From: an uncultured Gammaproteobacteria bacterium
GTDB lineage: Bacteria; Patescibacteriota; Patescibacteriia; UBA9570; XYC2-FULL-38-9
Reading direction: 5' to 3'
NCBI GenBank assembly: GCA_964344485.1
Contig: CAYFNF010000001.1
Span: 18,335 to 82,334 of the forward strand
DNA length: 64,000 bases
Part shown: positions 4,097 through 63,878 of the stretch, in pieces
Numbering within the stretch: position 1 is the first letter of the stretch
Layout of the letters: every line of letters begins with the position of its first letter
The notes under the pieces: model-generated
Told to the model about the DNA's origin: nothing
Database searches by the model: none
Seen by the model: the letters and a program-made list of their open reading frames with translations, nothing else
Position numbers and translations under genes: made by a program

Positions 4097-5025
4097 TGAC
4101 AAAAGGAAATATTATTGATGTCCATCAGTTTACTCAACAGGAATGGACATCGCTTATTCAACGCGCAGTTGAGTGTAAGGAAGATAAAGATCAATACAAG
4201 CAAGTACTTTCGGGGAAGCGCGTGGGTTTAGTATTTGATTCTAACTCACTGCGTACCAAGATTTCGTTTGAAACCGCAGCATATCTGTTAGGAGCAGATA
4301 GTTACTTTGTCTCTGTTGATACCGTAACTCAAGAGCGTGACGGCACACCACGAGAGATCTATGAAGACATCATTGAAACCCTGGATCGTATGGTGGACTG
4401 CTATGTGTTGCGTGATTACTCTCGAAAGCTTTACGATGTGTTTATTCGAAAAGAATATCCGCCGTTTATTAACGGACTCTGTGAAGTCGGCCATCCCAGT
4501 CAAGCACTGGCAGACCTTGGAGTACTGCAATGGAAAAAGAAGAAAGTAGAAGGATTGAACTATGCTGGAGTGTGTCCAGTAACCGGGAGCGGCGTGATAG
4601 AGTCCTATGTCTATGGAGTGTTGTTGTTGGGAGAAAATGTGACACTAATTACCCCTACCGGAGAGTTTGCAGGAAAGAACAAGGATTTTGACGAGCAGGT
4701 AAAGCGATTATCAAAAGAGCACGGTGGAACGTTATCAGTAACCAAAGATATCGCTAGCACCGTTGCTGCTGCGGATGTGTTGTATGTTGATGAGTGGTGG
4801 GAGAATGACCCGGATTTTCTGAAAAAGAAAATGGGAGAGTATAAGGTAGATAGTACATTTTTGCAGGGAAGTAAAAAAGACCTGTCTGTCTTGCATTGCC
4901 TGCCTGCACATCACGGAAGGGAGATTGAGAGTGATGTGATCTACGGAGACCAATCACTAATATTTGATCAAGCAGAATTCCGCGTCTATTCCGCGATGAG
5001 TCTGCTACTCTATTTATTTGAATAA
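4096..5025 (+). CDS. Carbamoyltransferase of the aspartate/ornithine carbamoyltransferase family; substrate unclear
   Basis: S-L-R-T-K (carbamoyl-phosphate-binding STRTR-like), HPSQ and HCLP motifs in the canonical order. No clear ornithine DxxSMG motif. Confidence 0.7.
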   Translation: MTKGNIIDVHQFTQQEWTSLIQRAVECKEDKDQYKQVLSGKRVGLVFDSNSLRTKISFETAAYLLGADSYFVSVDTVTQERDGTPREIYEDIIETLDRMVDCYVLRDYSRKLYDVFIRKEYPPFINGLCEVGHPSQALADLGVLQWKKKKVEGLNYAGVCPVTGSGVIESYVYGVLLLGENVTLITPTGEFAGKNKDFDEQVKRLSKEHGGTLSVTKDIASTVAAADVLYVDEWWENDPDFLKKKMGEYKVDSTFLQGSKKDLSVLHCLPAHHGREIESDVIYGDQSLIFDQAEFRVYSAMSLLLYLFE

Positions 5026-5029
5026 TATA

Positions 5030-5935
5030 CTACGCAGCCTGAGCCGTGATGCCGGCATCAGATCCTGTATCATGCCTGCGGCTAGAGCTAAGTTCACGTT
5101 CTACTGCTTCTCGTGCTTCACGTTGGATTTGGGCAAGCGCTACCCTACCTTCAGAAGTAGTATGGTACCAGCTTTGGCCTAAGTCCCAGAGCGATTCTGA
5201 CTCTCTCATCTGAACTGCAGGATCTAGTTTTTCCCCGACCAGGCGCTCTACCACAGGGAGTGCAGCAGCTGGATCCTCAAACGGTCTGCATTCGTGAATC
5301 GCCTCTGCGACTGCATAGACCGTACCGAGCTCTTGCTCTGGCATGCGCAGCCCTTCTTGGACGTGGTCGAATGCTAGATGTTCACCGTCTCCTAACTCTC
5401 TGACTTCAGCGAGCAGCACTTGAATTTCGCTTTCATGAGAACCGATCAGGTCCGGCAATCCAGCAACCCGTTGTTCGAAGTACGCACGAGACCTTCGCAT
5501 GGCTTCATCTCGAACTCGTGTTTCTACTATAGCATCGATCATTTCAGGGCTTGGGGCTTTTGCGGTATGCTCTCTTGCTTCTTGTACATGTAAAAGAAAA
5601 CCCTGTTCATCTCTTGTGACAGTCCACTCTCTCCCGTCATTTGCATGTCCAGTCACAGAGTCGCCTGCCTGCATTGCTTGAATTTCATTCACTTGACTTG
5701 CGCTCATTGCAATACCGCGGTCTACTTGCATCTCCTGGACTAAGCCATCTACTGTTTGATGAGCGATATGTTCTTTGCTTGTCGCACCAGCTTCCTCGAG
5801 CGGTTCTTGGTCATCTGGCTCTTGCCGCGCGAGACGCTCAGTAGTTGGTGATAGATCTGCTGACGCATCACCTCGGATCATATTTCCTCCAGTTCCAGCG
5901 TCGGAAAAACGTTGTCGTTCTGCAGCTGTGCTCAT
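5030..5935 (-). CDS. Hypothetical acidic protein
   Basis: Long ORF with consistent coding look and slightly elevated GC versus neighbours. No recognisable motifs. Confidence 0.4.
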   Translation of the reverse strand: MSTAAERQRFSDAGTGGNMIRGDASADLSPTTERLARQEPDDQEPLEEAGATSKEHIAHQTVDGLVQEMQVDRGIAMSASQVNEIQAMQAGDSVTGHANDGREWTVTRDEQGFLLHVQEAREHTAKAPSPEMIDAIVETRVRDEAMRRSRAYFEQRVAGLPDLIGSHESEIQVLLAEVRELGDGEHLAFDHVQEGLRMPEQELGTVYAVAEAIHECRPFEDPAAALPVVERLVGEKLDPAVQMRESESLWDLGQSWYHTTSEGRVALAQIQREAREAVERELSSSRRHDTGSDAGITAQAA

Positions 5936-6035: not shown

Positions 6036-6923
6036 ATGAAAAAGTTTTTTCTTATATTCGTCATTATCATTGCCCCGCTTTTTCTTCTTGGATGCAAACC
6101 GCAGCAGCAGGACAGTACTCTAGAGCGCGCGAGTAATACGGCAGCAACAACGACTGTTACGGAGTCTCAAGATGATAGCAGTAGCACGACTGACTCTGCA
6201 GCTGTAAGCTCGGAGGGCGTTAAGATTATATTCCTTCATCACAGTACCGGCAGTAATATCTGGGCCGGAGGAGTAGAAGCATGGTTTGATGAGTATAATA
6301 ATGAAAGCGGAATACACTATACTGTTACAGAACAGGATTTTCCAAAGGACTCCCCGTATGGATGGAATAACTATCCATATGACTACTGGAACATCTGGGT
6401 GAATTATGCAGGCGAGAGTACATATATGGAAGAGCCGACTCTTGAGCTGCTTACTGAGCAGTATGACATGATTATTTGGAAGCACTGCTATCCAGTGAGT
6501 CAAGTGGAAGCAGATAGCGGCAGTCCAGACATTACATCCGAAGTGAAATCAATTGAGAACTATCAGCTTCAATATAATGCACTGAAAAAGAAGATGCGTG
6601 AGTTTCCAGACACTGACTTTATTGTCTGGACTGGTGCTGCACAAGTACAAGGAGAGACCGATGCAGCAAGCGCACGGCGCGCGCAGACGTTCTTTCACTG
6701 GGTGCGGGATGAATGGGATGAAGAAGGAGACAATATCTATATCTGGGACTTTTTTCAGTTGCAAACTTCTGGTGGCATTTATTTCCGAGCGGAGTACGCC
6801 GAAAGCAAGGACGACTCACATCCGAATGCATCGTTTTCATATAAAGCAGCACCGCTATTCGGGCAGCGTGTTGTGAATGTAGCTGAGGGCAAAGGGGATG
6901 CCTCTAGTCTGACCGGAGAGTAG
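6036..6923 (+). CDS. Secreted lipoprotein, function unknown
   Basis: Signal peptide with lipobox LLGC followed by a Ser/Thr-rich linker. Confidence 0.55.
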   Translation: MKKFFLIFVIIIAPLFLLGCKPQQQDSTLERASNTAATTTVTESQDDSSSTTDSAAVSSEGVKIIFLHHSTGSNIWAGGVEAWFDEYNNESGIHYTVTEQDFPKDSPYGWNNYPYDYWNIWVNYAGESTYMEEPTLELLTEQYDMIIWKHCYPVSQVEADSGSPDITSEVKSIENYQLQYNALKKKMREFPDTDFIVWTGAAQVQGETDAASARRAQTFFHWVRDEWDEEGDNIYIWDFFQLQTSGGIYFRAEYAESKDDSHPNASFSYKAAPLFGQRVVNVAEGKGDASSLTGE

Positions 6924-6955
6924 AACTATCAAATGTAATCTGATATACTGTTTCT

Positions 6956-7657
6956 ATGTCTGTGCAACGAAATACTCATCCAACATTCAATGGAGATAAA
7001 AAAGTAGTACCGCAATCCAGGCTGGGCCAGATGGAACGGCGGTTTATTGAAAAGCATATTGATAAATGGCCGAGCTGGATTGAAGGACATCACTTGACTA
7101 TGACGACTCTGTTGTGGAGTGGCGGGCTGTTAGTATTTGGATACCTTGCTCAAGGGAATGCACATTGGTTGTGGTTGTCGTCTTTCATGATTTTCTTGCA
7201 ATGGTTTACGGATTCTTTTGATGGAGCGCTCGGTAGACATCGAGATTTTGGCATTCCACGTTGGGGGTTTTATATGGATCATTTTCTAGACTACTTGTTT
7301 CTCTGTGCCGTGTTTGTGGGATATTCATTTCTTGTCTCAGGCATCTATCAAACGATACTATTTGTTCTACTTGGAGTTTCAGTCGGGTTAATGGTGAGCG
7401 TATATCTATTTTTTGGTGCTATGAATTCATTTCGTATAGAGCATTTTAAATTCGGTCCCACGGATATGAGAATTCTATTTATTGCAATAAACACATTCAT
7501 CATATTCTTTCCAGTTCGATACTTTGAGTACTCTCTGCCGATATTTCTAGCTGTATTTTCTGCAATTTTACTTGCTGTAGTGTATAAAATGCAGCGTAGT
7601 ATTTGGCAGAAAGACATGGAAGAGAAGGCGGCACAACAACAGCAGAAGCAGCAGTAG
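6956..7657 (+). CDS. CDP-alcohol phosphatidyltransferase family protein
   Basis: DG-x2-GR-x8-G-x3-D-x3-D motif (FDGALGRHRDFGIPRWGFYMDHFLD); polytopic membrane protein. Confidence 0.65.
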   Translation: MSVQRNTHPTFNGDKKVVPQSRLGQMERRFIEKHIDKWPSWIEGHHLTMTTLLWSGGLLVFGYLAQGNAHWLWLSSFMIFLQWFTDSFDGALGRHRDFGIPRWGFYMDHFLDYLFLCAVFVGYSFLVSGIYQTILFVLLGVSVGLMVSVYLFFGAMNSFRIEHFKFGPTDMRILFIAINTFIIFFPVRYFEYSLPIFLAVFSAILLAVVYKMQRSIWQKDMEEKAAQQQQKQQ

Positions 7658-7814
7658 AATTTGTCTAATATTAGCGAAATAATTGTAAAAACAACCCATC
7701 GCAGGTTGATTTTTTATCTTTTTTTTGATATATATTGATGCGGCAAATCGCACGCAGTGCGGTTTTGTCGTCAGAAGGAGTGGATGCGCAAAATGCAGAT
7801 GAGGAGGCAGAACC

Positions 7815-8300
7815 ATGCCACGTAGCGCAACACAGGAAACCCATGGTGTAGTCCCCGTCGTCCCACGTCGCGGGACACCCCCGTCCGACCACGAGGTCGC
7901 GGCGTTCACCCTGGCCAGCAAGCCGGAGACGGTTCCGCTGATCATCCGGAACGTGGTCCAGTACGGTACGGGCGCCACGCCCGTGACCAACACGGACATC
8001 CACCGCCTGCGCCGCGCCGGGCTCGCCCGTCGCAACCGCATGGGCTTCAAGGTGGTCCGGGTCTCGGACACGGTGTTCGACGTTCTGGTCTTCGGCTGTT
8101 CCGCCAAGGGGCGGGGCTGGACCCGCAGGCAGGTCGACGAGTGGGCTCGCAACATGCAGGAGGTCCTGCACGCGATCGCGGACTTCACCGCGGTACGCGA
8201 TGTTCGCATCGAAGACTGGGACCGCACGGTTCAGGTCCCGGGCCGCGGGATGCGGCTCTACACCGTCGCCACCAGCAAGATCACCATCAGGGTCTCCTGA
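7815..8300 (+). CDS. Hypothetical protein encoded by a high-GC (foreign-looking) island
   Basis: Strong SD GAGGAGG 7 nt upstream of the ATG. GC by eye ~65-70% versus ~43% in the flanks. A GC-rich hairpin plus T8 terminator lies immediately downstream. The overlapping minus-strand ORFs look like high-GC artefacts. Confidence 0.5.
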   Translation: MPRSATQETHGVVPVVPRRGTPPSDHEVAAFTLASKPETVPLIIRNVVQYGTGATPVTNTDIHRLRRAGLARRNRMGFKVVRVSDTVFDVLVFGCSAKGRGWTRRQVDEWARNMQEVLHAIADFTAVRDVRIEDWDRTVQVPGRGMRLYTVATSKITIRVS

Positions 8301-8321
8301 CAAGCGCACTTCGCTGACGCA

Positions 8322-8358
8322 CCCCCACGCCACCGCGGCGTGATCAGGGGTTTTTTTT
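8322..8358 (+). terminator. Intrinsic terminator: GC-rich hairpin (ACGCC..GGCGT core) followed by T8
   Basis: Seen directly, downstream of the island gene stop at 8300. Confidence 0.55.
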
Positions 8359-8838
8359 ATTCTTCTCGTACCACTCTTGGTACATCGCGTCCGCCTCTTC
8401 TTTTGTCTCTACTGCGTGTACTTTCTTATAGGTTTTAGCAAAGCGCGCGAGCATATTAATGAAGAACACCATGGATTGGGTCTGTCCGTAGAACACAGTC
8501 TGGCTATTCTGTGGATGGCGTAACATTTTTTTGTACAGATCCATGGAAGGTTCTGACGGGAACTCACTATCATCTGAGCGAGTCATGTCTACATAGATAA
8601 AGAACGGCGTATCTGGGTGTTGCGGTAGCCATTTTTCGACCGTCTGCTTGTAGAGCCACTCTGTCTCCTCAGAGTGCTGCTCTTCACTCGTAGTCGGGAA
8701 CCCAAAGTGCAGATGGATCTCTTGAGTTTCGGGATAGATGGTCATCCAATCATCCGGTGGTTTATAACGAGCAAACTTCTCTGGTGGAAGCTGTTCACAT
8801 CTTTCACATTGGAACGGATAGTCGTATTTGTTTGTCAT
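8344..8838 (-). CDS. Hypothetical protein with N-terminal CxxC motif (tandem paralog 2)
   Basis: Paralogous to the upstream gene. CERCEQ motif; start MTNKYDY overlaps the upstream stop (ATGA). Confidence 0.5.
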   Translation of the reverse strand: MTNKYDYPFQCERCEQLPPEKFARYKPPDDWMTIYPETQEIHLHFGFPTTSEEQHSEETEWLYKQTVEKWLPQHPDTPFFIYVDMTRSDDSEFPSEPSMDLYKKMLRHPQNSQTVFYGQTQSMVFFINMLARFAKTYKKVHAVETKEEADAMYQEWYEKNKKNP

Positions 8839-9263
8839 ATTATTTTCTTTTCTGCTTCGTACCACTCTTGGTATAGTGCGTCCGCTTCTTCTTTACTCTC
8901 CACAACAAAGGCTTGATCTTTCATGCCAGACATACGGAACAGCACTTGGAGTACCATTTTCATTGCATGTGTTACTCCATAGAAAATCGCGCGACCGTTC
9001 TGATCATGTTTAAGCATTTCTTTGTAGAGATCGATCGCTTTCTCTGACGGGAATTCACTATTATCTCCTCGTGTCATATCCACAACAATGGTAAACAGTG
9101 TATCTGGGTGTTTATTAAAACTTTCAGTAATCGCGCAGTCATATACCCACTGTGCTTCAGCAGTACTCTCTTCTTCACTAGTCGTTGAAGTCCCGTAATG
9201 TAGGTGTAATAGTTGCTTCTTTGGATATGCTTTAAACCACGCATCTGTGTCTGCAAAATGCAA
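8835..9263 (-). CDS. Hypothetical protein (tandem paralog 1); N-terminus uncertain
   Basis: Paralog of 8344..8838. The conserved CEKC segment lies in frame upstream of the first canonical start (a TTG), up to a TAG at about 9330. Confidence 0.45.
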   Translation of the reverse strand: MHFADTDAWFKAYPKKQLLHLHYGTSTTSEEESTAEAQWVYDCAITESFNKHPDTLFTIVVDMTRGDNSEFPSEKAIDLYKEMLKHDQNGRAIFYGVTHAMKMVLQVLFRMSGMKDQAFVVESKEEADALYQEWYEAEKKII

Positions 9264-9342
9264 AAACTCTTCTGGTGCGTGAGGAGCACATTTTTCACAT
9301 TCAAACGGGTGTGTGTGTTTTTGTAGACATATCTACGTTCTA

Positions 9343-30521: not shown

Positions 30522-31010
30522 ATGAAGTGCTTGGGTATAGATCCAGGAATTGAGATAACAGGATTCGGTATATTAGAAGCGAATGGTTCTTCACAGCAAC
30601 TGATAGAGTACGGGGTGATCCGTACTTCTAAAGATGATAGTACGCCAGACCGTTTGCTTCAGCTGCACACAGATCTGATGCAAGTGCTACAGAAGCATCC
30701 AGACATTGCAGTAGCTGGAGTTGAGGAATTATTCTTTGCTAAGAATGCAAAGTCAGCATTCCAAGTTGGACAGGCGCGAGGAGTGATTCTACTCACTCTG
30801 GAGATGCATCACATCCTCATTCGAGAGGTGAAACCAGTTGAAGTAAAAGCTGCAATTGTCGGCTCAGGAAATGCAGATAAAAAGGAGGTGCAGAAAATGG
30901 TTCAATTAACATTTAATTTGGATACGCCACCACAACCTGACGATGCCGCAGATGCAATCGCAATCGCACTCTGCATGGCGTTTGATCAAGAATTGAAACA
31001 ACAACTATGA
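30522..31010 (+). CDS. ruvC: Crossover junction endodeoxyribonuclease RuvC
   Basis: LGIDPG N-terminus and DDAADAIAIALC C-terminal catalytic region. Confidence 0.9.
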   Translation: MKCLGIDPGIEITGFGILEANGSSQQLIEYGVIRTSKDDSTPDRLLQLHTDLMQVLQKHPDIAVAGVEELFFAKNAKSAFQVGQARGVILLTLEMHHILIREVKPVEVKAAIVGSGNADKKEVQKMVQLTFNLDTPPQPDDAADAIAIALCMAFDQELKQQL

Positions 31011-32587
31011 CACATTCCATATCATTACGCGTACTGATCTCTTCACTCATTGTATTTTTTGGAATGACCGCAGCGGTCCTTCCAGCAGCAGCACAAACAG
31101 CAGAGACGTCTGAAGAGATAGTAAGTGAGCAAGTAGTATTGAAGGCAAATGCTGGTAAGGACAGAAACGTTGTTGCAGGACGAACAGTGTTGTTTGATGC
31201 TGAGACTTCCACGATTCCAACAGACGAGGTATTAACATACTCGTGGGATTTTGGTGATGGACATACTTCCACTGGAATCGACGCCACACATATCTACTCT
31301 ACAAGTGGAACGTACCGCGTTACATTAACTGTTGAATCTTCCTCAGGCACTGCTAGTGAAGATAGCATTATCGTTTCAGTACAGGATACGTTAGTGGTGG
31401 TGATTACAGACCAGAGCGTCTCTGCGGAGCAAGTTGAGGATTTACAGGTTTCAGGACTGACCCAAGGAGTGTTGGTGGTACCAATTCGAGATACCGGTGT
31501 AAACCAGGAGTATCTGACGATTCAAAATCTCGCACAGCAGATCTCTGAGAATGAAGAGGATATTAGTTCAGCAAATATCATTGTTACGTGGACTGCTGGT
31601 AATGTGGGCTTAAACTCTCTTGTTGAGCTATCTCGTATTTCATCATTTGGAGATGGGTCGTTAGAGCAGTTCGGTTTCGGATCCAAAGCCATTATTGCGA
31701 TTAATGATCAGTCGTTAGTGACGAGCTTTAAGATTGCGCAGACTACGTTTCAGAGCGTGCAGCCGTCATACTTAGTGGTCTCTGACAGCAAGATCCTTGA
31801 TGATGTGATCCAAGCAGGTACTGCTGAGAATCTGCGAGAGAATTTGAGCAACAGCGATGCGGACTACCAAGTAATTACGGAATATACGGCTCGAGGCCTT
31901 GGAAACTTGAATCCGCTGAATTTCATGTCCTGGACTGTGAATTACATGATTAATAAAGGCGTGCCTATTAATTCGTTGTATTTGATTCTGATGCTACCGG
32001 TGATGGCAACGATTATCGCAGCCGGCCGACAGATGATTGGCATTAAGGCATTCGGTATTTTTGCGCCTACGGTCATCGCATTGTCGTTTCTAGCTACGGG
32101 CATCAAATACGGGGTGACACTGTTCATCGCGATTATCATTATTGGAACTATTGCGAGGTTAATAGCGCGGAAATTCCGATTGCTGTACCTCCCGCGCATG
32201 GCGATTGTACTTTCTATCTTGGCGCTGTCTATCTTTGCAATGTTCTTTGTTGGTGCTGTGTTCAATAAAACAGGCTTCATTGCAATTTCTATCTTCCCGA
32301 TTCTGATTATGACTGTGCTGACAGAGCATTTTGTGTCAGTGCAGATTGAGCAAGGGTACCGTACCGCAATTCGCATGACCCTAGAGACCCTGTTTCTGTC
32401 ATTAATTGGATTCTGGATTGGAGACTGGACCGTGTTCAAAACCATCATTCTTGCATATCCAGAGTTGATCCTCTTAACATTTGTAGTGAACTACCTCATG
32501 GGTAAATTCTCTGGACTGCGGTTAACTGAGTATCTTCGTTTTAAAGAAGTGTTTAAACACATGAAGGATGCTAAAGGGAAGAAATAA
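31007..32587 (+). CDS. Membrane protein: signal peptide, PKD domain, extracytoplasmic region, C-terminal 7-TM module
   Basis: WDFGDGHTS..YRVTLTV PKD signature; seven hydrophobic helices in the last ~230 aa; overlaps ruvC by 4 nt. Confidence 0.6.
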   Translation: MTHSISLRVLISSLIVFFGMTAAVLPAAAQTAETSEEIVSEQVVLKANAGKDRNVVAGRTVLFDAETSTIPTDEVLTYSWDFGDGHTSTGIDATHIYSTSGTYRVTLTVESSSGTASEDSIIVSVQDTLVVVITDQSVSAEQVEDLQVSGLTQGVLVVPIRDTGVNQEYLTIQNLAQQISENEEDISSANIIVTWTAGNVGLNSLVELSRISSFGDGSLEQFGFGSKAIIAINDQSLVTSFKIAQTTFQSVQPSYLVVSDSKILDDVIQAGTAENLRENLSNSDADYQVITEYTARGLGNLNPLNFMSWTVNYMINKGVPINSLYLILMLPVMATIIAAGRQMIGIKAFGIFAPTVIALSFLATGIKYGVTLFIAIIIIGTIARLIARKFRLLYLPRMAIVLSILALSIFAMFFVGAVFNKTGFIAISIFPILIMTVLTEHFVSVQIEQGYRTAIRMTLETLFLSLIGFWIGDWTVFKTIILAYPELILLTFVVNYLMGKFSGLRLTEYLRFKEVFKHMKDAKGKK

Positions 32588-34049
32588 TGTATTAGGCTTG
32601 AACGCTCGCAGCGCAATCTACTTGCGCGGAAATAAAAAGCGAGCTCGAGCTATTGCAGACAATAAAATAGACACAAAGAAGCGACTGAAGAAGCACGGCA
32701 TTGCTACTGCAGATATGTTGGCGGTGATTCGAGAGCGTAGCGAAGCCCGTGAGTTTGATTGGGAGTCGCTACCACCTAGTTTTGTGATTAAACCGAATCG
32801 TGGACTTGGCGGGGAAGGAATACTGATTATCTTTAACCGTCTGAAGAATGGGAATTGGTTAACTACTAATAAGCGGCAGCTAACTGCCGAGGATCTTTCT
32901 GTGCATGTTCATAATATTCTAGATGGGAATTATTCCTTGTTAAATACTCCAGATATTGCATTATTTGAAGCTCGTCTTTCTATTGATCCGTTGTATAAGC
33001 GGTTTTCAACGCAAGGCATTCCTGATATTCGAGTGGTGGTGTATAACAACGTGCCGGTGATGGCGATGCTGCGGGTCCCTACAAAGAAGTCGAACGGAAA
33101 AGCAAATTTAAACCAAGGTGGGCTCGGTATTGGTATTGATATCGCGACCGGGCTGACTACTCATGTGGTGACCAAGTCATTTCTATATGAAAAGGAGATT
33201 GAGCGGCATCCAGACACGAACCTGAGTTTACGGGGTGTACGTGTTCCGTATTGGTCTGAGATATTAAAGACTGCTGTTATTGCTTCGCGTGTTATTGGGC
33301 TGAAGTACGCTGGAGTAGATATTTCTGTGGATAAGAAGCGCGGCCCGGTGGTGCTGGAGTTAAACGCGCGACCAGGTTTGGGAATTCAAGTGGCGAACAT
33401 GGCTCCATTACAGGAGCGTCTTCGTCGCATTCATGGATTGAAAGTAGACACTCCAGAGCGTGGCATCTCGATTGCAAAAGAATTATTTGCCGGACGAATT
33501 GAGCAACGCATTGCGAGCATTACCGGACGACATATCATTGGCCTCATTGAGCCGATTACTCTGTTTGGGAAAGAGAAGGCGATAAAAAAGGTGCGGGCGA
33601 AGATTGATACTGGGGCAGATAATAGTTCTGTGGATACAGCGCTGGCGCGGGAGCTTGGATATGGAGACGCTATTGATCTGTTTGATTCGTATGATATTCC
33701 AGAGGAGTTAACACACGAAGAAGCAAAAGAGCGCGCTCGAGAGATAGAGAAGAATTTAATAAAAGAGAATCGTGATATTCAAGGCCTCTCTATTGTGAGT
33801 TCTTCGCATGGAGTGTCATTGCGTATTCGAATTAAGATGGCAGCGACGCTTTCTGGATATAAGATGAACATTGAACCCACAGTAGTTGACCGTTCACATT
33901 TGAAATATCCAATATTGGTTGGACGCCGCAATCTCGCGCACTTCCTGATTGATACAACAAAAGTTTCACTAAGAAAACGAAAGGTAGTGTCTAAGAAAAG
34001 CACTGCCAAAACCACAAAAGCAAGTACAGCAGGAAAAGCTGCAGTGTGA
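32568..34049 (+). CDS. RimK-related (alpha-L-glutamate-ligase-like) ATP-grasp fused to a C-terminal retropepsin-like aspartic peptidase domain
   Basis: N-terminal LGLNARSAIYLRGNKKRARAIADNKIDTKK and ATP-grasp core. C-terminal IDTGADNSSV is the DTGA aspartic-peptidase signature. Overlaps the upstream 7TM gene by 20 nt. Confidence 0.6.
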   Translation: MLKGRNNVLGLNARSAIYLRGNKKRARAIADNKIDTKKRLKKHGIATADMLAVIRERSEAREFDWESLPPSFVIKPNRGLGGEGILIIFNRLKNGNWLTTNKRQLTAEDLSVHVHNILDGNYSLLNTPDIALFEARLSIDPLYKRFSTQGIPDIRVVVYNNVPVMAMLRVPTKKSNGKANLNQGGLGIGIDIATGLTTHVVTKSFLYEKEIERHPDTNLSLRGVRVPYWSEILKTAVIASRVIGLKYAGVDISVDKKRGPVVLELNARPGLGIQVANMAPLQERLRRIHGLKVDTPERGISIAKELFAGRIEQRIASITGRHIIGLIEPITLFGKEKAIKKVRAKIDTGADNSSVDTALARELGYGDAIDLFDSYDIPEELTHEEAKERAREIEKNLIKENRDIQGLSIVSSSHGVSLRIRIKMAATLSGYKMNIEPTVVDRSHLKYPILVGRRNLAHFLIDTTKVSLRKRKVVSKKSTAKTTKASTAGKAAV

Positions 34050-37916: not shown

Positions 37917-39074
37917 ATGAAGATATATTCAGTCACAGAGTTTAGAGAAGAAGTGAATGACCTCCTAGATGAGGTCACTGTTGCAATTCAGGGCGAGATC
38001 TCAGACATGAATATCTCTCAGAATCGGTTTGTGTGGTTCTCATTAGTGGATGATACTACTGTACTGAAGTGTTTCATGTTGACGTTTCAATTGAAGCAAC
38101 CACTCGAAGATGGGATGGAGATTCAGGCCATTGGTTCTCCCACGTTGTTTAAGAAAGGTCAGTTCGTATTTCGACCTCGGCAGATAGAGTTAGTAGGTGA
38201 GGGATCACTCAAGCGCGCATATGAGTTACTCAAGAAAAAGCTAGAGAAAGAGGGGCTGTTCGATGAGACACGAAAGCGAGCACTACCGCGGTTCTCTGAA
38301 AAGATTGGCTTGATTACTAGCAAAGACGCAGCTGCATATACAGACGTACTACGAATTTTGAAAAACCGCTGGGCCGGGCTAGATATTCGTCATATGAACG
38401 TTCAAGTGCAGGGCGCTAAGGCAACGAACAGTATTGTCAACGCGCTCACTGAGTTGAATGAGTCACAACAGGATTTAGATTGTATTATTCTCACACGTGG
38501 AGGTGGTTCATTAGAAGATTTGCAAGCGTTTAATACTGAAGAAGTAGTGCGAGCGATCTATGCGTCAAAGATCCCTGTAGTGTGTGGTGTTGGCCATGAA
38601 CGGGACGTCACACTCTCTGATTTAGTTGCAGATGTTCGAGCCTCGACCCCATCGAATGCAGCTGAAATTGTGGCACCAGACAAACAGGACGTAATTGCGG
38701 AGCTAGAGTATATGAAAGAACGCTGCGTCACGAGTGTAGAGTCTGTGGTGAAGCAGTATCAGGACGGTGTTCAGCAAGCAGTATCCGTGTTAGAGAGCAA
38801 GATACATGAGCAGCACAGTCGCTTTGAGACGCTCCAGTATGCATTTCTCTCGAAGTTTCAGGAGTATCAAGCGCAGATTCAATTGCGCAAGGAGCAGATT
38901 GGCCACATGCAGCAGCTGATCCACTCATACAACCCACTGCATGTGTTAAAACGCGGATATACATTGACAAAAGACTCAAAAGGCAGAATGATTACTACTG
39001 CGAAAAAAGCAAAGCAACAGAAGCAGATCACTACGGTGTTTCGTGATGGCTCTGTAGAATCTACAGTTGATTAA
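37917..39074 (+). CDS. xseA: Exodeoxyribonuclease VII large subunit
   Basis: N-terminal OB fold, GLITSKDAAAYTDVL and LTRGGGSLEDLQAFN catalytic-domain motifs, C-terminal helical region. Confidence 0.85.
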   Translation: MKIYSVTEFREEVNDLLDEVTVAIQGEISDMNISQNRFVWFSLVDDTTVLKCFMLTFQLKQPLEDGMEIQAIGSPTLFKKGQFVFRPRQIELVGEGSLKRAYELLKKKLEKEGLFDETRKRALPRFSEKIGLITSKDAAAYTDVLRILKNRWAGLDIRHMNVQVQGAKATNSIVNALTELNESQQDLDCIILTRGGGSLEDLQAFNTEEVVRAIYASKIPVVCGVGHERDVTLSDLVADVRASTPSNAAEIVAPDKQDVIAELEYMKERCVTSVESVVKQYQDGVQQAVSVLESKIHEQHSRFETLQYAFLSKFQEYQAQIQLRKEQIGHMQQLIHSYNPLHVLKRGYTLTKDSKGRMITTAKKAKQQKQITTVFRDGSVESTVD

Positions 39075-40098: not shown

Positions 40099-40099
40099 T

Positions 40100-41116: not shown

Positions 41117-41122
41117 TTGTCA

Positions 41123-41151
41123 TTGACATAACCGGTAAATACACGTACTCT
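41123..41151 (+). promoter_or_regulatory. Sigma70-like promoter TTGACA-N17-TACTCT with a very short leader upstream of xseB
   Basis: Read directly; the -10 ends ~10 nt before the ATG at 41162. Confidence 0.4.
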
Positions 41152-41161
41152 AGTATTAAAT

Positions 41162-41407
41162 ATGGCTAAAAAACAGGGAAAAAAACGAACAACTGCTGGA
41201 GCAAAGTCATCCAAGACGTTTGCAAACCGCTTTGAAGAGTTGGAAAAGATTGTTGAGTCTTTTGACTCCGAAGAGCTGGATGTAGATGCAAGCGTTAAGC
41301 AATTCGAAAAGGGCTTGAAGCTTGCAGAAGAGTTAAAAGAAACATTAGAATCCGTAGAGAATAAGATTGAAACTCTGAAGAAGAAATATCACGTGGAGGA
41401 AGAATAA
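41162..41407 (+). CDS. xseB: Exodeoxyribonuclease VII small subunit
   Basis: 81 aa; FEELEKIVESF..FEKGLKLAEEL matches the XseB helical core. Confidence 0.75.
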   Translation: MAKKQGKKRTTAGAKSSKTFANRFEELEKIVESFDSEELDVDASVKQFEKGLKLAEELKETLESVENKIETLKKKYHVEEE

Positions 41408-44499: not shown

Positions 44500-44500
44500 A

Positions 44501-50799: not shown

Positions 50800-51249
50800 A
50801 TGATTGTGAGACCGAGTGACGAGTACGTGGGAGACGCCTACGTCTTCCAGGTGGACGGGCAGTGGTTCGAGGCCCTGCCGTTCGTCAAGCCGGACGACAA
50901 GGGTCCGGACGACCGCCAGAGCGTGGACGGCCGCACCATGCTGGAGCGCGTGCCCGTGAGCGATGCCCAGGGCACCAAGGCGCAGGGCCAGCTGTGCATG
51001 GAGCACCAGCTCGACATGAGCGTGCTCACGCACAAGCCGCTGGGCCAGCGCGGGATGACCGTGACCGGTGTCGTGCACCTGGTGTTCGCGAACTGGGAGG
51101 CACAGCCCATCGTGGACGGGCTCACCGAGCTGTTCTACGACGCCGGGCAGTGGAGGCCGGGCAGCATGAGTCTGGGTAGCCAGTTCTTCGCGCACCACCG
51201 AGTGGTCCGCCCCTGCGACCCGCCGCCCGAGGCCGGTGACGCGAGCTGA
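50800..51249 (+). CDS. Hypothetical protein, high-GC island gene
   Basis: SD GGAGGAGG 8 nt upstream; abrupt GC increase at ~50740. The minus-strand ORF 50563..51198 crosses the GC boundary and is rejected. Confidence 0.4.
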   Translation: MIVRPSDEYVGDAYVFQVDGQWFEALPFVKPDDKGPDDRQSVDGRTMLERVPVSDAQGTKAQGQLCMEHQLDMSVLTHKPLGQRGMTVTGVVHLVFANWEAQPIVDGLTELFYDAGQWRPGSMSLGSQFFAHHRVVRPCDPPPEAGDAS

Positions 51250-51486: not shown

Positions 51487-52890
51487 ATGTCGAAAACCGC
51501 GTTGGTTTTCGGAGGTGTTGGCTTGGTGGGCGGAGAGGTCATCCGCCTGCTGGCCAGTCAGTTCAACCTGAGCATCGTGGTCTGCGATCGCAGGCCACCC
51601 GAGGAGGAGATCGACGGCGTGGTCTACGTGACCGGTGACCACGTCAACGTGTTCAGTCGTTCGTTCGTGGACGACATGATCGCGCAGCACGCCCCGGCCC
51701 TGATCGTGGACGCGGTCAACATCGCGAGCATCGCGAGCCGGAGCGGCGACCTGGAACAGATGGTCCGCGCCTACTGCTTCAACGTGATTCGGCCCACGAT
51801 CCGGCGTGGCATCACATGGATCGACATCGGCACGGTCGCGACCGGCGGCCTGGGCCTCGAGATCCCGTACACCCACAACGAGGAGTCCGACGGTGGGATC
51901 GCCCCCGGGCTGATCCTCAAGAACGAGGCGGCCGAGATCCACGGCGGGTTCCTGGACCTGTTCGGTCGTACACCCGGCATGCGCGTGGGACGCGTGATCC
52001 CCAGGGGCATGATCGGCTTCGAGACGCCGACGTTCGGCGCCATGACCGTGGCGCACCTGAACGGCACCCCGACGCGCTACCGCAGCATCCGCGTGGACGT
52101 GGCCGACGCGCAGGCCGTGACGTTCGTGCCCCTGGGCGAGTACCAGGACGTGGGTGTCCGGTGCGGTGAGAACGGCCAGTTCGGGGTCGAGGAGACCATC
52201 GCGATCACCGCGATCGGCCAGATGGAATCCGTGACCGCGCAGGCCGTGGCCCGTGGGTGCGGCCGTGTCTACGGCTGTCTGCTCTCGGGTGCCGGCGAGT
52301 ACGTGCAGTGCAACATCGACCCGGACCTGACGTCCTTCGCCGCGCGCAACCGCGTGATCAAGCGCATGAACGACCTGTCCGGTCGGCACCGCGTGCACAG
52401 CATCGCGTTCGGCAACCTGGGCCCGTACATCACGTGCGACCTGTGGGAGCTCCACGTGCTGGCGCGTCACGGCTTCACGCCGCAGAACCTGGCCGAGTTC
52501 GAGGGCGCGGTCCTGTGGCAGGACGAAGTCATCGAGGAGATGGCCACCTGGCTCCCGGGCCTGGGCATTCCCATCGCCATGGACGGGCATCTGTACCCCG
52601 CGTTCCAGGGCGAGGTCGAGCTGAGCCGCGACGACGTGGCCGAGCAGATCCAGGCCGTGACCACGGGCAACGAGCCCAAGCTGTGGTACGTGGACCTGCG
52701 CACCGAGCGCGTGCTCCACTGGGCCAGGATCGCGAGACAGATCCAGCAGGCCGATCCGGAGGACTACCCCCGGAGCCACCTGCCGCTTTCCGCGGGCAAG
52801 CTGGTCCGCCCCGGTTCCTTCTGGGCCGCGTACCAGACCGTGACCGGGCACAGCCGCAACGCGTACAGCGAAGGCGCGCGCTACGTCTAG
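51487..52890 (+). CDS. NAD(P)-binding Rossmann-fold protein (saccharopine-dehydrogenase-like N-terminus), high-GC island gene
   Basis: ALVFGGVGLVGGEV GxGxxG at the N-terminus; SD GGAGGTGGAAGGGAG upstream; AT-rich spacer with TTGACA boxes upstream; hairpin plus T7 terminator at 52924-52956. Confidence 0.5.
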   Translation: MSKTALVFGGVGLVGGEVIRLLASQFNLSIVVCDRRPPEEEIDGVVYVTGDHVNVFSRSFVDDMIAQHAPALIVDAVNIASIASRSGDLEQMVRAYCFNVIRPTIRRGITWIDIGTVATGGLGLEIPYTHNEESDGGIAPGLILKNEAAEIHGGFLDLFGRTPGMRVGRVIPRGMIGFETPTFGAMTVAHLNGTPTRYRSIRVDVADAQAVTFVPLGEYQDVGVRCGENGQFGVEETIAITAIGQMESVTAQAVARGCGRVYGCLLSGAGEYVQCNIDPDLTSFAARNRVIKRMNDLSGRHRVHSIAFGNLGPYITCDLWELHVLARHGFTPQNLAEFEGAVLWQDEVIEEMATWLPGLGIPIAMDGHLYPAFQGEVELSRDDVAEQIQAVTTGNEPKLWYVDLRTERVLHWARIARQIQQADPEDYPRSHLPLSAGKLVRPGSFWAAYQTVTGHSRNAYSEGARYV

Positions 52891-53101: not shown

Positions 53102-53188
53102 GTTACTCGCCCTGGAATAATGGCGAGTCCAAACTGGGGAACGATCAACGTATCGACGATAGTATATTCCACCAGACGGGAGAAGGTA

Positions 53189-53604
53189 TGCTGGCACCTG
53201 ACGCAGCAGACCACGTCCGACAAAGCGCATTCATGCGCTACCTGAGCCGCCTCATGATGCTGCGCGGCATCGGGGCGTCGGACCTCACCGATCGACTGAT
53301 GGTGGCCGATGACGGCCCCACGGTCCAACGCGCAGCGCAAGACCAGCTCTTGCTCAAGTCCACGACAGCGCTTCCGCGAGACGTGGTGCGCAGCCTGCCG
53401 GCCGAGGAGCACATCCAGGACATGCTCGACAACGCCGAGCTTCTGGAGGCCATCCACGACCTGGCGCAGGCAGCAGCACGCAGTGCGGTACAGGCAACTG
53501 GACACGACGTGGACTGGGTCCAGATCCTGAACGTGGACCTGGCGACGAGCTTCGCGGTCGCGCGGCGACTGTTCGGTGATGCCCGCATGGAGGGCAGAGC
53601 CTGA
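53189..53604 (+). CDS. Hypothetical small protein (possible regulator), high-GC island gene
   Basis: SD GGGAGAAGG before the ATG at 53189; high GC. Confidence 0.35.
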
Positions 53605-54347: not shown

Positions 54348-55679
54348 TCAGCTGTCCTCGGACCCGCTGTCCTGCAGGTAGGTGCGCTCGACGTAGAAGA
54401 AGCGCGACACCGCGATGTAGGCCAGGGCCATGACGACCATGAAGGCCGCGAAGAACAGGTAGTACGTCGGACCGCTCATGTTCGTCAGCGTCTCGCTGGA
54501 GCTGATGACCCAGTTCACCGCGGCGGTGAACAGGTTGCCCAGCGCGATTGCGACGCAGAACAGTCCGAAGACCAGGCTCTTCAGCTTGGGCGGTGCCTGG
54601 GTGTAGAAGAACTCCAGGGCGGTGCCGTAGGTCAGCGTTTCGCCGATGGACAGGATCAGCCAGGCGAGCATCTGCCACTTGAGGTTGAGCACCACGTCGG
54701 CGTCCAGCTGCGACTGGATCCAGGCCGCGAGCACGAACGAGCCGGCCGCGAAGAACAGGCCGGTGCCGATCTTGCGGATCGCGGTGAACTCCACGACGTG
54801 GTTGATCCACTTGTAGACCCAGCGGTTGAAGACGAACACCAGCACGATGATCATCACCGGGTTCACCATCGGGACCTGCGCCGGGAGCCACTTGAAGCCC
54901 AGGAAGTGCAGGTCCATCTCCTTGGCCTGCAGCACCCAGCGCGACGCGCCCTGGTCGTAGAGGCTGAAGAACCCCGTGATGAAGACGAGCAGCATGGAGA
55001 TGCGTGCCAGCACCACGAGGGTCTCGCGGGTGAAGACCTCGCGGCGGAAGGACGGCCAGTCCGGCGGGGTGTGGTTGTAGTGGTGCCGCCCCAGCCAGAA
55101 GATGAAGATGGCCACGAGCATCAGCACCGCCGGGATGCCGAACGCCACGCGCGGACCGAACCACTCCAGCATGAACGGGCTGATCACCGAGGAGAGGAAC
55201 CCCCCGGCCTGGATGCCCATGTAGAAGTAGCTGATGCCCTTGTCCAGCAGGCTGGCGTTCTCCTTGCTGTACAGGTCGCCGACCATGGCGACCATGCAGG
55301 GCTTGATGCCGCCCGAGCCGAGCGCGATCAGGCCCAGGCCCAGGTACAGGCCGAGCCGCGTCTGGTCCATCGCCAGGACGATGCAGCCCGCGGCGTAGAC
55401 CAGGGAGAGGCTGAGCACGGTCTTGTATTTCCCGATCAGCAGGTCCGCCAGGAAGCTGCCCAGCAGCGGGCAGAAGTAGTTGGCGAACGCGAACAGGTGG
55501 AACACCACCGCGGACTCTTCCTCGCTCATGGGTGAGAGCACACCGGCCCGGTTCACGATGTAGTCGGTCATGTAGACCACGAGGATCGACCTCATCGCGT
55601 AGTAGGTGTAGCGCTCTGCTGCTTCGTTGCCGACCAGGAACTTCAGTCCCGGCGGCATTCTCGTTTTGTTGGTTGTCAT
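54348..55679 (-). CDS. POT/PTR2-family proton-dependent di/tripeptide transporter, high-GC island gene
   Basis: GGIKPC, FYMGIQAGGF and a 12-14 TM layout typical of DtpT-like POT transporters. SD GGAGAG upstream (minus strand). GC by eye ~65%. Confidence 0.75.
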   Translation of the reverse strand: MTTNKTRMPPGLKFLVGNEAAERYTYYAMRSILVVYMTDYIVNRAGVLSPMSEEESAVVFHLFAFANYFCPLLGSFLADLLIGKYKTVLSLSLVYAAGCIVLAMDQTRLGLYLGLGLIALGSGGIKPCMVAMVGDLYSKENASLLDKGISYFYMGIQAGGFLSSVISPFMLEWFGPRVAFGIPAVLMLVAIFIFWLGRHHYNHTPPDWPSFRREVFTRETLVVLARISMLLVFITGFFSLYDQGASRWVLQAKEMDLHFLGFKWLPAQVPMVNPVMIIVLVFVFNRWVYKWINHVVEFTAIRKIGTGLFFAAGSFVLAAWIQSQLDADVVLNLKWQMLAWLILSIGETLTYGTALEFFYTQAPPKLKSLVFGLFCVAIALGNLFTAAVNWVISSSETLTNMSGPTYYLFFAAFMVVMALAYIAVSRFFYVERTYLQDSGSEDS

Positions 55680-63578: not shown

Positions 63579-63878
63579 TCACTCAGTCGTGTGCTTCCTG
63601 CGCTCGGTTTTGCGTCCGAGCTCGTACGCCATGTCGAGCAGGTCGTCCACGGTCTCCCAGATCGGATCCGAGACGCTCATGATCGCGCGGAGCGCATCCA
63701 AGCCTTCTCCGTCGATCTTGTGCCCGTCCAGCTTCACGCAGTGGACCATGGGCTCTCCGTCGTACGTCTGCGACTCGAGGTTTTCCTGGTCGCAACCGGT
63801 GAGCAGGATTTCGTGGAACCCGCCTTGGTCCGTGTGTTCGATCACGGTCAGGGTGTACGTCCATTTCTTTTCGCTCAT
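63579..63878 (-). CDS. Hypothetical protein, high-GC island gene
   Basis: SD GAGGAGGAG before the ATG; high GC. The plus-strand ORFs over the same span are rejected as artefacts. Confidence 0.4.
   Translation of the reverse strand: MSEKKWTYTLTVIEHTDQGGFHEILLTGCDQENLESQTYDGEPMVHCVKLDGHKIDGEGLDALRAIMSVSDPIWETVDDLLDMAYELGRKTERRKHTTE

Follow-up and report, generated by a model that had tools for sequence, protein, structure and literature searches.

Two dissimilar GC-rich ORFs behind one conserved promoter and leader in related bacteria

Phage morons are independent promoter-ORF-terminator units within prophages (PMC3594210). The gene described here resembles a moron in that a single ORF has its own predicted sigma-70-type promoter (TTGATT-N17-TG-A-TATATA) and factor-independent terminator (11-pair stem and T8), as read at the sequence level, and in that its composition is distinct from that of the adjacent, unrelated genes (GC 0.67 vs 0.44). 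It differs in lying among cellular genes that are syntenic in relatives, with no prophage neighbourhood, in having a promoter and leader that predate the ORF behind them, and in that at least six such units lie in the 64 kb of chromosome analysed, the whole of which is referred to below as the window. The Lawrence-Ochman model reportedly accounts for compositionally atypical orphan islets by horizontal transfer with amelioration. Our locus is like such an islet in its atypical GC, GC3 and codon usage, its orphan protein and its variable interval. However, no donor was found, the ORF or transcript, and not a DNA fragment, sets the borders, and the same site is GC-rich in the diverged relative L084, where there is no empty or differently bounded site. 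Moreover, GC3 in the window is bimodal without ameliorating intermediates, a peptide transporter (POT) island combines extreme GC3 with amino acids of a GC-poor type, and mobility signatures (border repeats, tRNA genes, an integrase next to the islands examined) were not found. Integron cassettes are likewise single-ORF modules of varied and often unknown function, exchangeable at a fixed expression site, but the units in the window share no attC-like repeat, the only common trait of their 3' ends being hairpin-T-run terminators of differing sequence, and they are scattered rather than arrayed, each with its own promoter and with no integrase adjoining those examined. GC-biased gene conversion in bacteria (Lassalle et al. 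2015) would lift GC3 in place, at loci that recombine often, with little change to the protein, as in the POT gene. Bacterial shifts of this kind are reportedly far below the ~45 points of the present case, and a conversion tract would not be expected to end at an ORF border.

The GC content of the gene is 0.67 (0.65/0.51/0.86 at the three codon positions), compared with 0.441±0.023 for 59 host ORFs in the window, of which GC3 is 0.424±0.051 (maximum 0.56). This places it at z-values of 10 for GC, 8.5 for GC3 and -8.7 for the host-referenced CAI, and the GC jump previously put at ~25 points measures ~23 points against the host mean. Along the DNA, the GC content is 0.24 in the intergenic stretch 7658-7737, 0.55 in the leader, 0.67 in the ORF, 0.70 in the 3' UTR and 0.44 in the next gene. 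The ORF is compositionally foreign in its host genome. The period-3 pattern of GC assigns coding to its plus-strand frame, and two long minus-strand ORFs over the same stretch (219 and 220 aa) show the mirror-image, antisense pattern and match no family, which speaks against a real gene on the minus strand. The other doubt raised in the earlier note, an assembly artefact, is countered by a second contig (ENA k127_29507, 1880 bp) that corresponds to positions 7184-9063 at 99.95% identity and spans both junctions; it may share the sample of the window, and its sole mismatch, at 8362, lies outside the island. An analogous GC-rich island is found at this site in a contig that derives from a different sample. 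The 161-codon ORF is a real gene on the plus strand.

Table 1. Features of the GC-rich unit, its surroundings and the other GC-rich islands of the window (positions in the window).
Feature	Position	Strand	Details
CDP-alcohol phosphatidyltransferase gene	6956-7657		Upstream of the island; Pfam PF01066
Terminator-like hairpin	7692..7708	+	CAACCCATCGCAGGTTG then ATTTTTT; terminator scan; ends CDP-alcohol phosphatidyltransferase gene
Predicted sigma-70-type extended -10 promoter	7706..7734	+	Read from sequence; -35 TTGATT 7706-7711, 17-nt spacer, TG 7726-7727, -10 TATATA 7729-7734
5'-terminal stem-loop of leader	7740..7771	+	MFE fold; then TTTT
Conserved leader block	7774-7787	+	GAAGGAGTGGATGC; alignment with L084
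Putative 13-codon upstream ORF	7784-7825	+	MRKMQMRRQNHAT, then stop; stops just beyond main ATG
GC-rich orphan ORF	7815..8300	+	161 aa; ATG start; SD GAGGAGG 7801-7807
Intrinsic terminator	8321..8358	+	11-pair bulged stem 8321-8350, T8 8351-8358, then ATTC
Convergent host gene, CxxC family	8344..8838	-	No Pfam match
Island, 149-aa orphan ORF	50800..51249	+	GC3 0.91; own SD (GGAGGAGGG); hairpin-T7 terminator
Island, 467-aa ORF	51487..52890	+	GC3 0.92; weak Rossmann/epimerase-like N-terminus; predicted promoter TTGACA-16-TACTAT at 51406-51433
Island, 138-aa orphan ORF	53188..53604	+	GC3 0.78; predicted promoter TTGACA-17-TACGAT at 53071-53099
Island, POT/PTR2 peptide transporter	54348..55679	-	GC3 0.96; GC1/GC2 0.55/0.39; ~150-nt leader (by reading); hairpin-T8 terminator
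Island, 99-aa orphan ORF	63579..63878	-	GC3 0.84; last gene of a GC-rich operon cut by the window end

Judged by its sequence, the segment 7706-8358 appears to be a complete, self-contained transcription unit with promoter, leader, SD, ORF and intrinsic terminator (Table 1). Its left border is the hairpin at the end of the upstream gene, which overlaps the -35 of the island promoter. This promoter is absent from our program scan, which demands a T at position 6 of the -10, but the block TTTTTTTTGATATATA and the -35 are kept in L084 (TTGACG-N17-TATATA). Transcription is predicted to start near 7740, and the leader of 77 nt bears the 5' stem-loop. The hairpin CGCAC-GCA-GTGCG described earlier in this region is real and represents the tip of that longer structure, which is present in the MFE structures of the window and L084 leaders (two sequences only). 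Its 3' arm, AGTGCGGTTTT, is identical in both, and its lower stem is altered on both sides (C-G to U-A, by reading). At gathering thresholds Rfam returned nothing for the leader, and below them only RNAI (E = 0.56). The conserved leader block is also found in L084, together with a putative upstream ORF of 12 codons (MQILKRRQGICC, then stop) that stops 7-8 nt past the main ATG; the SD-to-ATG spacing of the putative upstream ORF is poor (3 nt). At the other end, the terminator has a fold energy of -21.6 kcal/mol (57-nt fold). The L084 unit likewise terminates with a hairpin, followed by GGGTTTTTTTATT, and every island in the window ends with T6-8 and then A. The suggestion that the GC hairpin and T8 end the island gene holds for the plus strand, but the element does not double as the terminator of the convergent gene, because no T-run follows the hairpin on the minus strand; this is an overlap of ORFs and not a bidirectional terminator. 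The stop codon of the convergent gene (8344-8346) sits in the hairpin bulge, its last codons cross GGGG and T8, and altogether the stop and last five codons overlap the island terminator. The product of this gene has a C-terminus four residues longer than in relatives and orthologues in L084 (59% identical) and L086 (51% identical). The convergent CxxC genes are indeed a pair of paralogs, as had been stated, with 48% identity to each other.

The relative L084 is syntenic with the window. The 10-kb neighbourhood is collinear with neighbouring proteins that are 59-78% identical, and other syntenic proteins go down to 18-38% identity. The neighbours, namely the CDP-OH transferase, the CxxC pair, a PEP-utilizers protein, an MGMT-like protein and an ECF sigma factor, are all syntenic in both L084 and L086. 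Directly after the CDP-alcohol phosphatidyltransferase gene, L084 keeps the promoter, the 5' stem-loop and the leader up to the ATG. The leader alignment has a mean column identity of 73%, with invariant blocks until the ATG, where similarity ends, and the occupant of L084 (L084:7952-8452) is a different GC-rich ORF of 166 aa with a pI of 10.1 and a GC3 of 0.73. No match was obtained between the two occupants by BLASTP, their Smith-Waterman and global alignment scores were below those of shuffles, hhalign gave P = 0.56 with a non-significant collinear match of 37 residues, and their DNA alignment was no better than codon-shuffled controls. Tests for orthology found the position and regulatory region to be conserved, with no detectable similarity of sequence or profile; the traits common to the two proteins are their length (161 and 166 aa), their basic pI (11.1 and 10.1) and their GC-rich genes. 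A socket of promoter and leader is conserved at the same site, and its two occupants are dissimilar. Because promoter and leader are conserved in L084 before a different ORF, they did not arrive with the 161-aa ORF. The view of the flanks as passive host background has to be abandoned accordingly.

The interval that separates the CDP-OH gene from the CxxC genes is plastic, with an extra PolyA_pol gene in L084, and the more distant L086 has other genes at the socket site, the interval there including a 608-aa gene and a COX2-like gene. A scan of JGI metagenomes with the CxxC family revealed no further relatives with the socket, and none of the 80 loci from a scan with the CDP-OH family (43-55% identity, 27-70% GC) had a GC-rich island as the immediate downstream neighbour of the CDP-OH gene. 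The leader was not found by nhmmer and motif in 1.07 Mb of fetched loci, nor by pattern in viral contigs. One locus, L125, was considered as a candidate and rejected, since the gene concerned proved to be DprA-like.

The 161-aa protein has a pI of 11.1 (R 13%, K 2.5%) and no hydrophobic N-terminal stretch by eye. It found only itself among 5.8 billion clusters and 1.84 billion cluster representatives (~15 billion proteins). There were zero matches in Pfam, PHROGs and PADLOC, no match by tblastn against plasmids and phages and none among IMG/VR viral contigs. The one NCBIfam match (13.9 bits vs a cut-off of 492) and the two PDB matches (both E>1) are not credible. The earlier statement that no homology is recognisable is upheld by these homology and family searches, and the protein appears, by sequence comparison, to be a strict orphan. 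Its AlphaFold2 single-sequence model (pLDDT 42) is too low in confidence for a fold search and has scant regular structure ahead of residue ~59, with an alpha/beta C-terminal half after it. Solely from the basic pI of this protein and of its L084 counterpart, the lack of a hydrophobic N-terminus and the little-structured N-terminal third of the low-confidence model, one might guess at a nucleic-acid-binding or conflict-related role. We infer that 7706-8358 encodes a real, lineage-restricted, strongly basic small protein that is probably expressed.

The same pattern had been proposed for other genes of the window, and it recurs there in five more islands (GC3 0.78-0.96), which are the same kind of unit as 7706-8358. 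GC3 is bimodal, with host ORFs at 0.56 or less, islands at 0.78 or more, and none between. The base composition at 4-fold sites is C 0.45 and G 0.44 in the islands and C 0.49 and G 0.44 in the 70%-GC contig L171, compared with C 0.16 and G 0.25 in host genes. The codon usage of the islands is homogeneous and cannot be told apart from the usage in a genuine genome of 70% GC. GC steps track the parts of transcription units, and a 237-bp AT-rich spacer separates the islands 50800..51249 and 51487..52890. Another 70%-GC contig, L111, which has a CDP-OH homologue, is without AT-rich intergenic dips, so that a donor of this type would not supply the AT-rich spacers seen here. The orphan proteins of the islands show no relationship among themselves, and those outside the socket are acidic, unlike the two basic socket occupants. 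Exact look-ups of the other island proteins returned nothing on record, and no island protein matched a PHROG. The window lacks tRNA genes, direct or inverted repeats were not found at the island borders, and no integrase was seen adjoining the islands examined. The comparison of island flanks for shared repeats or att-like sequences, which had been put forward as a check, revealed only T-runs in common.

The POT island permits a comparison across genomes. The nearest relatives of the window POT are single-gene GC-rich islands in other GC-poor genomes and not GC-rich donors. The gene has a GC3 of 0.69-0.96 and saturated 4-fold sites in five or more GC-poor genomes that come from different samples, at protein identities of 57-64% between sublineages and 84-90% within the L082/L167/L168 trio. 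Despite its GC3 of 0.96, the window POT has a GC2 of only 0.388 and 23.7% G+A+R+P. The GC2 of its six closest relatives is 0.383, compared with 0.422±0.019 (G+A+R+P 28.3±2.0) for the other 93 homologues and 0.453 (31.4%) for the POT from a genuine genome of 70% GC. The GC of this island at synonymous sites is decoupled from that of its amino acids, whose make-up is GC-poor in type. In a two-state ML fit of the trio, a model with GC3 stationary at 0.73 does as well as the free one, and a host-like equilibrium of 0.43 is worse by 2dlnL = 7.1; with 4-fold sites alone this difference drops to 2.4 and loses significance, and the result is not robust to among-site rate variation.

We tentatively favour, at a probability of about 0.4, turnover at the level of the ORF in a conserved native expression socket that is fed by a GC-rich pool of genes not yet sampled. 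Promoter, leader and terminator style, as a regulatory shell, would be native and vertically inherited, and the socket, directly downstream of the CDP-alcohol phosphatidyltransferase gene, would be older than the split between the window and L084. Its coding content would be replaced ORF by ORF from a pool unsampled in public data, possibly GC-rich members of this uncultured lineage or the mobile elements that they carry, and what the window shows would be the present occupant and not a newly inserted gene with flanks of its own. We infer both the horizontal origin of the socket ORF and the replacement event. In favour of turnover we count the match of composition at all codon positions and of codon usage to a genuine GC-rich genome, with R far above K, as well as the conserved socket, the dissimilar occupants, the plastic interval and the second contig over the junctions. 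The bimodal GC3 fits young occupants with fast turnover. A survey of groundwater Patescibacteria that describes genomic islands and transfers of single genes, for the most part inside the phylum (PMC12455944), is counted on the same side. Against turnover stand the absence of a donor or homologue of the 161-aa protein in ~15 billion proteins and the lack of repeats, tRNA genes and matches of island proteins to phage families. Moreover, we know of no recombination mechanism that exchanges an ORF exactly between leader and terminator. Both occupants are GC-rich, basic and ~160 aa long, which resembles orthology more than random replacement, and the POT island, with its kin in GC-poor genomes and its GC-poor-type amino acids, argues against simple import.

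The main rival, which we hold to be somewhat improbable, is that the 161-aa and 166-aa ORFs are orthologues diverged past recognition, inherited and kept GC-rich in place. Such divergence is possible because other syntenic proteins are already at 18-38% identity. A defined subset of units (socket, POT) would be held at high GC by a gene-bounded force, such as selection on mRNA or codon choice, or gene conversion with a GC bias at accessory loci prone to recombination, and the amino-acid make-up would follow only in weakly constrained proteins. This would agree with the conservation of GC-richness in both comparable cases (GC3 0.86/0.73 for the window and L084 sockets, 0.69-0.96 for POT), the low GC2 of the window POT and its closest kin, the ML equilibrium of the trio, the GC steps that follow transcription-unit parts, the AT-rich spacer between two adjacent islands, the failure to find a donor anywhere and the similar length and basic nature of both socket proteins. 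However, the ML result is fragile as described, the codon usage of the islands is indistinguishable from that of a real GC-rich genome, and no similarity between the two socket proteins could be demonstrated. Mutation in bacteria is generally AT-biased, and to our knowledge no mechanism produces an ORF-bounded GC3 shift of +45 points in bacteria. We regard it as unlikely that the islands are not foreign DNA at all but a second, heritable compositional class of native genes, with a GC3 of 0.7-0.96 held across speciation. The force could then be selection for GC-rich mRNA, for example to withstand an RNase with a preference for A/U sites or in reliance on a separate decoding regime, or it could be an unusually strong, locus-limited GC-biased conversion. 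A classical recent insertion, in which one foreign gene, or what is left of a prophage moron or mobile element, came in between two host genes with its own signals, would suit the sharp compositional contrast, the moron-like promoter and terminator and the several units in one window. This is quite improbable in view of the promoter and leader conserved at the same L084 site before a different ORF, the conserved synteny of the cellular neighbours, the lack of PHROG matches to the island proteins, of repeats and of tRNA genes, and a protein that matches nothing in phage, plasmid and viral collections. The earlier idea of repeated single-gene insertions from one donor stands as far as the foreign composition, the at least six single-ORF islands and their homogeneous codon usage are concerned, but not with respect to the native conserved promoter and leader, the missing donor homologue, the lack of repeats and the POT kin in GC-poor genomes. 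Very little weight can be given to an artefact, be it an assembly chimera or a non-coding GC-rich stretch with chance ORFs and perhaps a real gene on the minus strand. GC-rich DNA does give long ORFs in several frames, as on the minus strand here, and the protein has no homologue, but the second contig, the analogous unit in another sample, the period-3 pattern specific to the plus frame and mirrored in the minus frames, the correctly placed SD, promoter and terminator and the unmatched minus-strand ORFs all speak against this.

The gene content of the host (ATP-grasp genes, Mur ligases, bact-PGI_C), together with relatives in 0.2-um groundwater filtrates, suggests an ultra-small, CPR-like organism. 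Its YebC is at best ~50% identical to those of diverse phyla, among the matches listed. The pattern described here was not encountered in a literature search. Compositional islands are routinely read as recent horizontal transfer, and this reading is strained here by four facts: the conserved native shell, the absence of a donor in ~15 billion proteins, the GC-richness that persists across GC-poor genomes and the decoupling in the POT gene. Turnover of ORFs in a fixed socket would amount to gene exchange in the manner of cassettes without the machinery known for these. Maintenance of GC in place would represent a gene-specific compositional regime that is undescribed in bacteria and that, in such lineages, would undermine the use of GC content to call horizontal transfer. 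In both cases the locus provides a small and well-defined test case, with a single socket, two occupants and six islands.

The ORF 7815..8300 (+), which encodes 161 aa from an ATG located 7 nt 3' of the SD sequence GAGGAGG, lies in a 620-bp stretch (7761-8380) with a GC content of 0.65-0.70, in a window with a mean GC of 45.7%. Its GC1/GC2/GC3 values were 0.65/0.51/0.86, as compared to 0.537/0.363/0.424 for 59 host ORFs (GC3 s.d. 0.051, maximum 0.56), corresponding to z-scores of 8.5 for GC3, 10 for total GC and -8.7 for the host-referenced CAI. The view expressed in an earlier note that this is a GC-rich outlier gene amid GC-poor host DNA is thus borne out. The GC step tracked the parts of the transcription unit, with values of 0.24 for the intergenic region 7658-7737, 0.55 for the leader (7738-7814), 0.67 for the ORF, 0.70 for the 3' UTR hairpin and 0.44 for the next gene. 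The two long minus-strand ORFs at this position matched no protein family and mirrored the period-3 pattern of the plus-strand ORF. Therefore, the gene is the plus-strand ORF, and the possibility that the real gene is host-like and on the minus strand, which the earlier note had raised, was not upheld. An assembly artefact, raised there as well, is very unlikely, because a second contig (MEGAHIT k127_29507 from ENA, ERZ930068; 1880 bp) covers window positions 7184-9063, crosses both island junctions and differs by a single base at 8362, outside the island. The exact sequence of the upstream CDP-alcohol phosphatidyltransferase (CDP-OH; P0125, 6956-7654) is on record from an NCBI contig, and the 161-aa protein only from the ENA contig, so that the NCBI record may not annotate the latter.

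Positions of predicted transcription signals of the island unit and of further GC-rich islands in the window
Feature	Position	Strand	Remarks
Predicted extended -10 promoter	TTGATT 7706-7711, 17-nt spacer, TG-A-TATATA 7726-7734	+	from sequence
Stem-loop opening the predicted transcript	7740-7771	+	includes the hairpin noted earlier
3' end of predicted transcript	bulged 11-pair stem 8321-8350, then T8 8351-8358	+	
Island	50800-51249	+	
Island	51487-52890	+	
Island	53188-53604	+	
Island	54348-55679	-	POT/PTR2 transporter gene
Island	63579-63878	-	

The predicted promoter overlaps the terminator of the CDP-OH gene, and the 5' hairpin reported previously is indeed present within the stem-loop that opens the predicted transcript. 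The terminator had been described as shared with the convergent host gene 8344..8838 (-), which encodes a CxxC protein. On the plus strand there is a GC hairpin with T8, and the CxxC stop codon (8344-8346) sits in the hairpin bulge. However, the minus strand has no T-run after the hairpin, which means that two gene ends overlap and that the terminator is not bidirectional. The last codons of the CxxC gene cross the GGGG and T8 sequences to give ...KNKKNP, and its product is four residues longer at the C-terminus than in relatives.

No homology of the 161-aa protein was recognisable, in line with what had been claimed from the sequence. It matched only itself among 5.8 billion clusters and in a full phmmer search of 1.84 billion representatives, and it had no match in Pfam, PHROGs or PADLOC. 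Nothing credible emerged from NCBIfam, where the single match reached 13.9 bits (cut-off 492), or from PDB sequences (two matches, E>1), plasmid records, phage records or IMG/VR. The single-sequence AlphaFold2 model (pLDDT 42) is unreliable. The protein is strongly basic (pI 11.1; R 21 versus K 4), with no hydrophobic N-terminal stretch detectable by eye. A nucleic-acid-binding or conflict-related role would be a guess from its charge, size and turnover.

For the CxxC protein, two homologues were found in other samples, and both of their contigs (L084 and L086) are syntenic with window 5-16 kb. In L084 (overall GC 41%), the identities to the window are 78% for the ECF sigma factor, 76% for the CDP-OH transferase, 68% for the MGMT-like protein, 59% for the CxxC protein, 56% for the GRAM protein and 18-49% for the other syntenic proteins. 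Directly downstream of its CDP-OH gene, L084 carries a GC-rich orphan of 166 aa (7952-8452; GC 0.62, GC3 0.73) that has no Pfam match. The promoter region is kept as far as the ATG, including the -35, the block TTTTTTTTGATATATA, the sequence AGTGCGGTTTT that forms the 3' arm of the 5' stem-loop, a further block, GAAGGAG(T/C)GGATGC, and the SD; a leader stem-loop is predicted for both units, and their terminators are similar in form. Motif-level conservation of this type between the two contigs is also seen in an unrelated regulatory region, 5' of the sigma-factor gene; we therefore regard the leader as a constrained native element, part of what is here termed a ‘socket’ for an ORF. No similarity could be detected between the two occupants: BLASTP gave no match, local and global alignment scores were below those of shuffled controls, hhalign gave P = 0.56, and the DNA alignment was no better than codon-shuffled controls. 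Both proteins are nevertheless about 160 aa long and basic (pI 10.1 in L084), unlike the remaining island orphans, which are acidic. The conserved leader also contains possible upstream ORFs, of 13 codons in the window (7784-7825; MRKMQMRRQNHAT, then stop) and 12 codons in L084 (approximately 8453-8491, minus strand; MQILKRRQGICC, then stop). Both start 3 nt past GAAGGAG and stop 7-8 nt beyond the main ATG, with different frame offsets, and they could serve translational coupling or attenuation, or be coincidental.

The socket was found in two genomes only, the window and L084. In the more distant L086 (55% GC), other genes occupy the interval between the CDP-OH and CxxC genes, and more distant CDP-OH loci (43-55% identity, 27-70% GC) have no GC-rich island directly 3' of the CDP-OH gene. 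L084 has a PolyA_pol gene (CCA-adding enzyme family; region 6212-7804) between island and CxxC gene, of which no homologue occurs anywhere in the 64-kb window. The window CxxC ORF reaches into the island terminator by four codons, which would fit a deletion that brought the CxxC gene and the island together. In the CxxC paralog (8835-9341, -), the CxxC motif (..HPFECEKC..) lies 5' of the first ATG/GTG/TTG and immediately 3' of an in-frame stop, meaning either a non-canonical start codon or a decaying N-terminus.

Similar GC-rich genes are present at the other sites that had been singled out before: the five further islands have GC3 values of 0.78-0.96, and no gene has a GC3 between the host and island ranges. 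They are built alike: the promoter is of the TTGACA type and lies in AT-rich DNA, the leader measures 70-150 nt, the SD is strong, and at the 3' end a hairpin precedes T6-8 and then A. The 237-bp spacer between two adjacent GC-rich ORFs (51250-51486) is clearly AT-rich. The island orphan proteins showed no kinship when compared with one another; the others were subjected to family scans, and the 467-aa protein was also compared with plasmid, viral and PDB sequences. Not all islands are single genes, since the last one (63579-64000, -) is an operon of at least two genes, cut off at the window end; the SD of its 99-aa ORF falls within the upstream GC-rich ORF. Four of the six islands directly adjoin lexA (49870-50508, -) and a 94-aa ORF (49581-49865), and the divergent region 50509-50799 between lexA and the first of them contains repeated AAACCCGAAT-like motifs. 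Two host-type genes with locally raised GC, but whose GC3 is not raised, are not islands, namely 5030-5935 (-), encoding an acidic Ala/Glu-rich protein of 301 aa (GC1 0.71) with a syntenic, 37% identical L084 orthologue, and 62333-62520, the Arg/Pro-rich N-terminus of the 409-aa protein at 62333. Their raised local GC is an effect of amino-acid composition. Elsewhere in the window, a dense series of RimK/ATP-grasp and Mur-ligase-like genes (39067-45451) and a PKD + 7TM_transglut gene paired with an ATPgrasp_ST + Zn_protease gene (31007-34049) suggest a host peptide-ligation or modification cluster.

The POT island served as a test case. The nearest homologues of the window transporter are 56-61% identical, and all four with fetched DNA (P0002, P0003, P0004 and P0007) are single-gene GC-rich islands (GC3 0.69-0.77) on contigs whose other genes have GC3 values of 0.24-0.43; some of these come from 0.2-um groundwater filtrates, and they have partly different genomic contexts. 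POT forms a single-gene island of this kind in no fewer than five GC-poor genomes, which come from different samples (window; L082, L083, L167-L170). Among fetched DNA, the nearest homologue placed in a uniformly GC-rich genome (L171, 70% GC) is 49% identical. Fourfold sites are saturated between POT sublineages (58-70% of sites differ), so that the GC3 of 0.96 cannot be explained by a single ancient import and neutral amelioration. In the syntenic trio L082/L167/L168, synonymous divergence of POT is similar to that of flanking genes. A two-state ML fit with a stationary GC3 of 0.73 was as good as the free model, and a host-like equilibrium of 0.43 was worse (2dlnL = 7.1 for all synonymous third positions, but only 2.4 for fourfold sites alone), although this test is not robust to among-site rate variation. 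The window POT combines its GC3 of 0.96 with GC-poor-type amino-acid content (GC2 0.388, G+A+R+P 23.7%), close to its six closest relatives (0.383, 24.8%), as compared to 0.422+-0.019 and 28.3+-2.0% for the other 93 homologues and 0.453 and 31.4% for L171; amino acids of the GC-rich type would be expected had the gene been imported recently from a donor of 70% GC. The leader of the window POT gene, about 150 nt long (55680-55830), has mid-range GC and no Rfam match. L083 also carries a GC-rich orphan island (4628-5038, -; 136 aa, lipoprotein-like N-terminus) adjoining a XerC-like integrase on a contig of 36-40% GC; its GC3 of 0.70, like the 0.69 of the POT island there, hints that the GC level of islands is specific to each genome.

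The simple recent insertion proposed in the earlier note is contradicted by the conserved socket, by the absence of a donor for the 161-aa gene in homology searches, and by borders that follow the ORF or transcript and are unmarked by repeats, tRNA genes or phage-family matches. We tentatively favour turnover of ORFs within a native socket, drawn from an unsampled GC-rich gene pool (probability roughly 0.42). This is consistent with an island codon usage that could not be told apart from that of a genuine GC-rich genome, the GC-rich-type amino-acid content of the island orphans, the bimodal GC3 across window ORFs and the plasticity of the CDP-OH-CxxC interval among the window, L084 and L086, and with the report that transfer in groundwater Patescibacteria is mainly within the phylum (PMC12455944). 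Alternatively, and somewhat doubtfully, the genes may be vertically inherited with their GC held high in place. This would fit the retention of GC-rich status in both testable cases, the decoupling of synonymous from amino-acid GC in POT, the elevated equilibrium preferred by the stationarity fit, and the charge and size common to both socket proteins.

Like a phage moron (PMC3594210), the island unit combines a promoter and a terminator of its own with a deviant composition, but the defining prophage context is absent. None of the donor, empty site and mobility marks expected of a fresh horizontal-transfer islet was found, nor were the attC and array of an integron cassette. We regard it as a variant of the compositional islet or moron-like unit, without membership in any of these families. 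Both ORF turnover and maintenance of GC in place require something hitherto undescribed: the former needs a means of exact ORF swapping between leader and terminator, and the latter a gene-bounded pressure towards GC.
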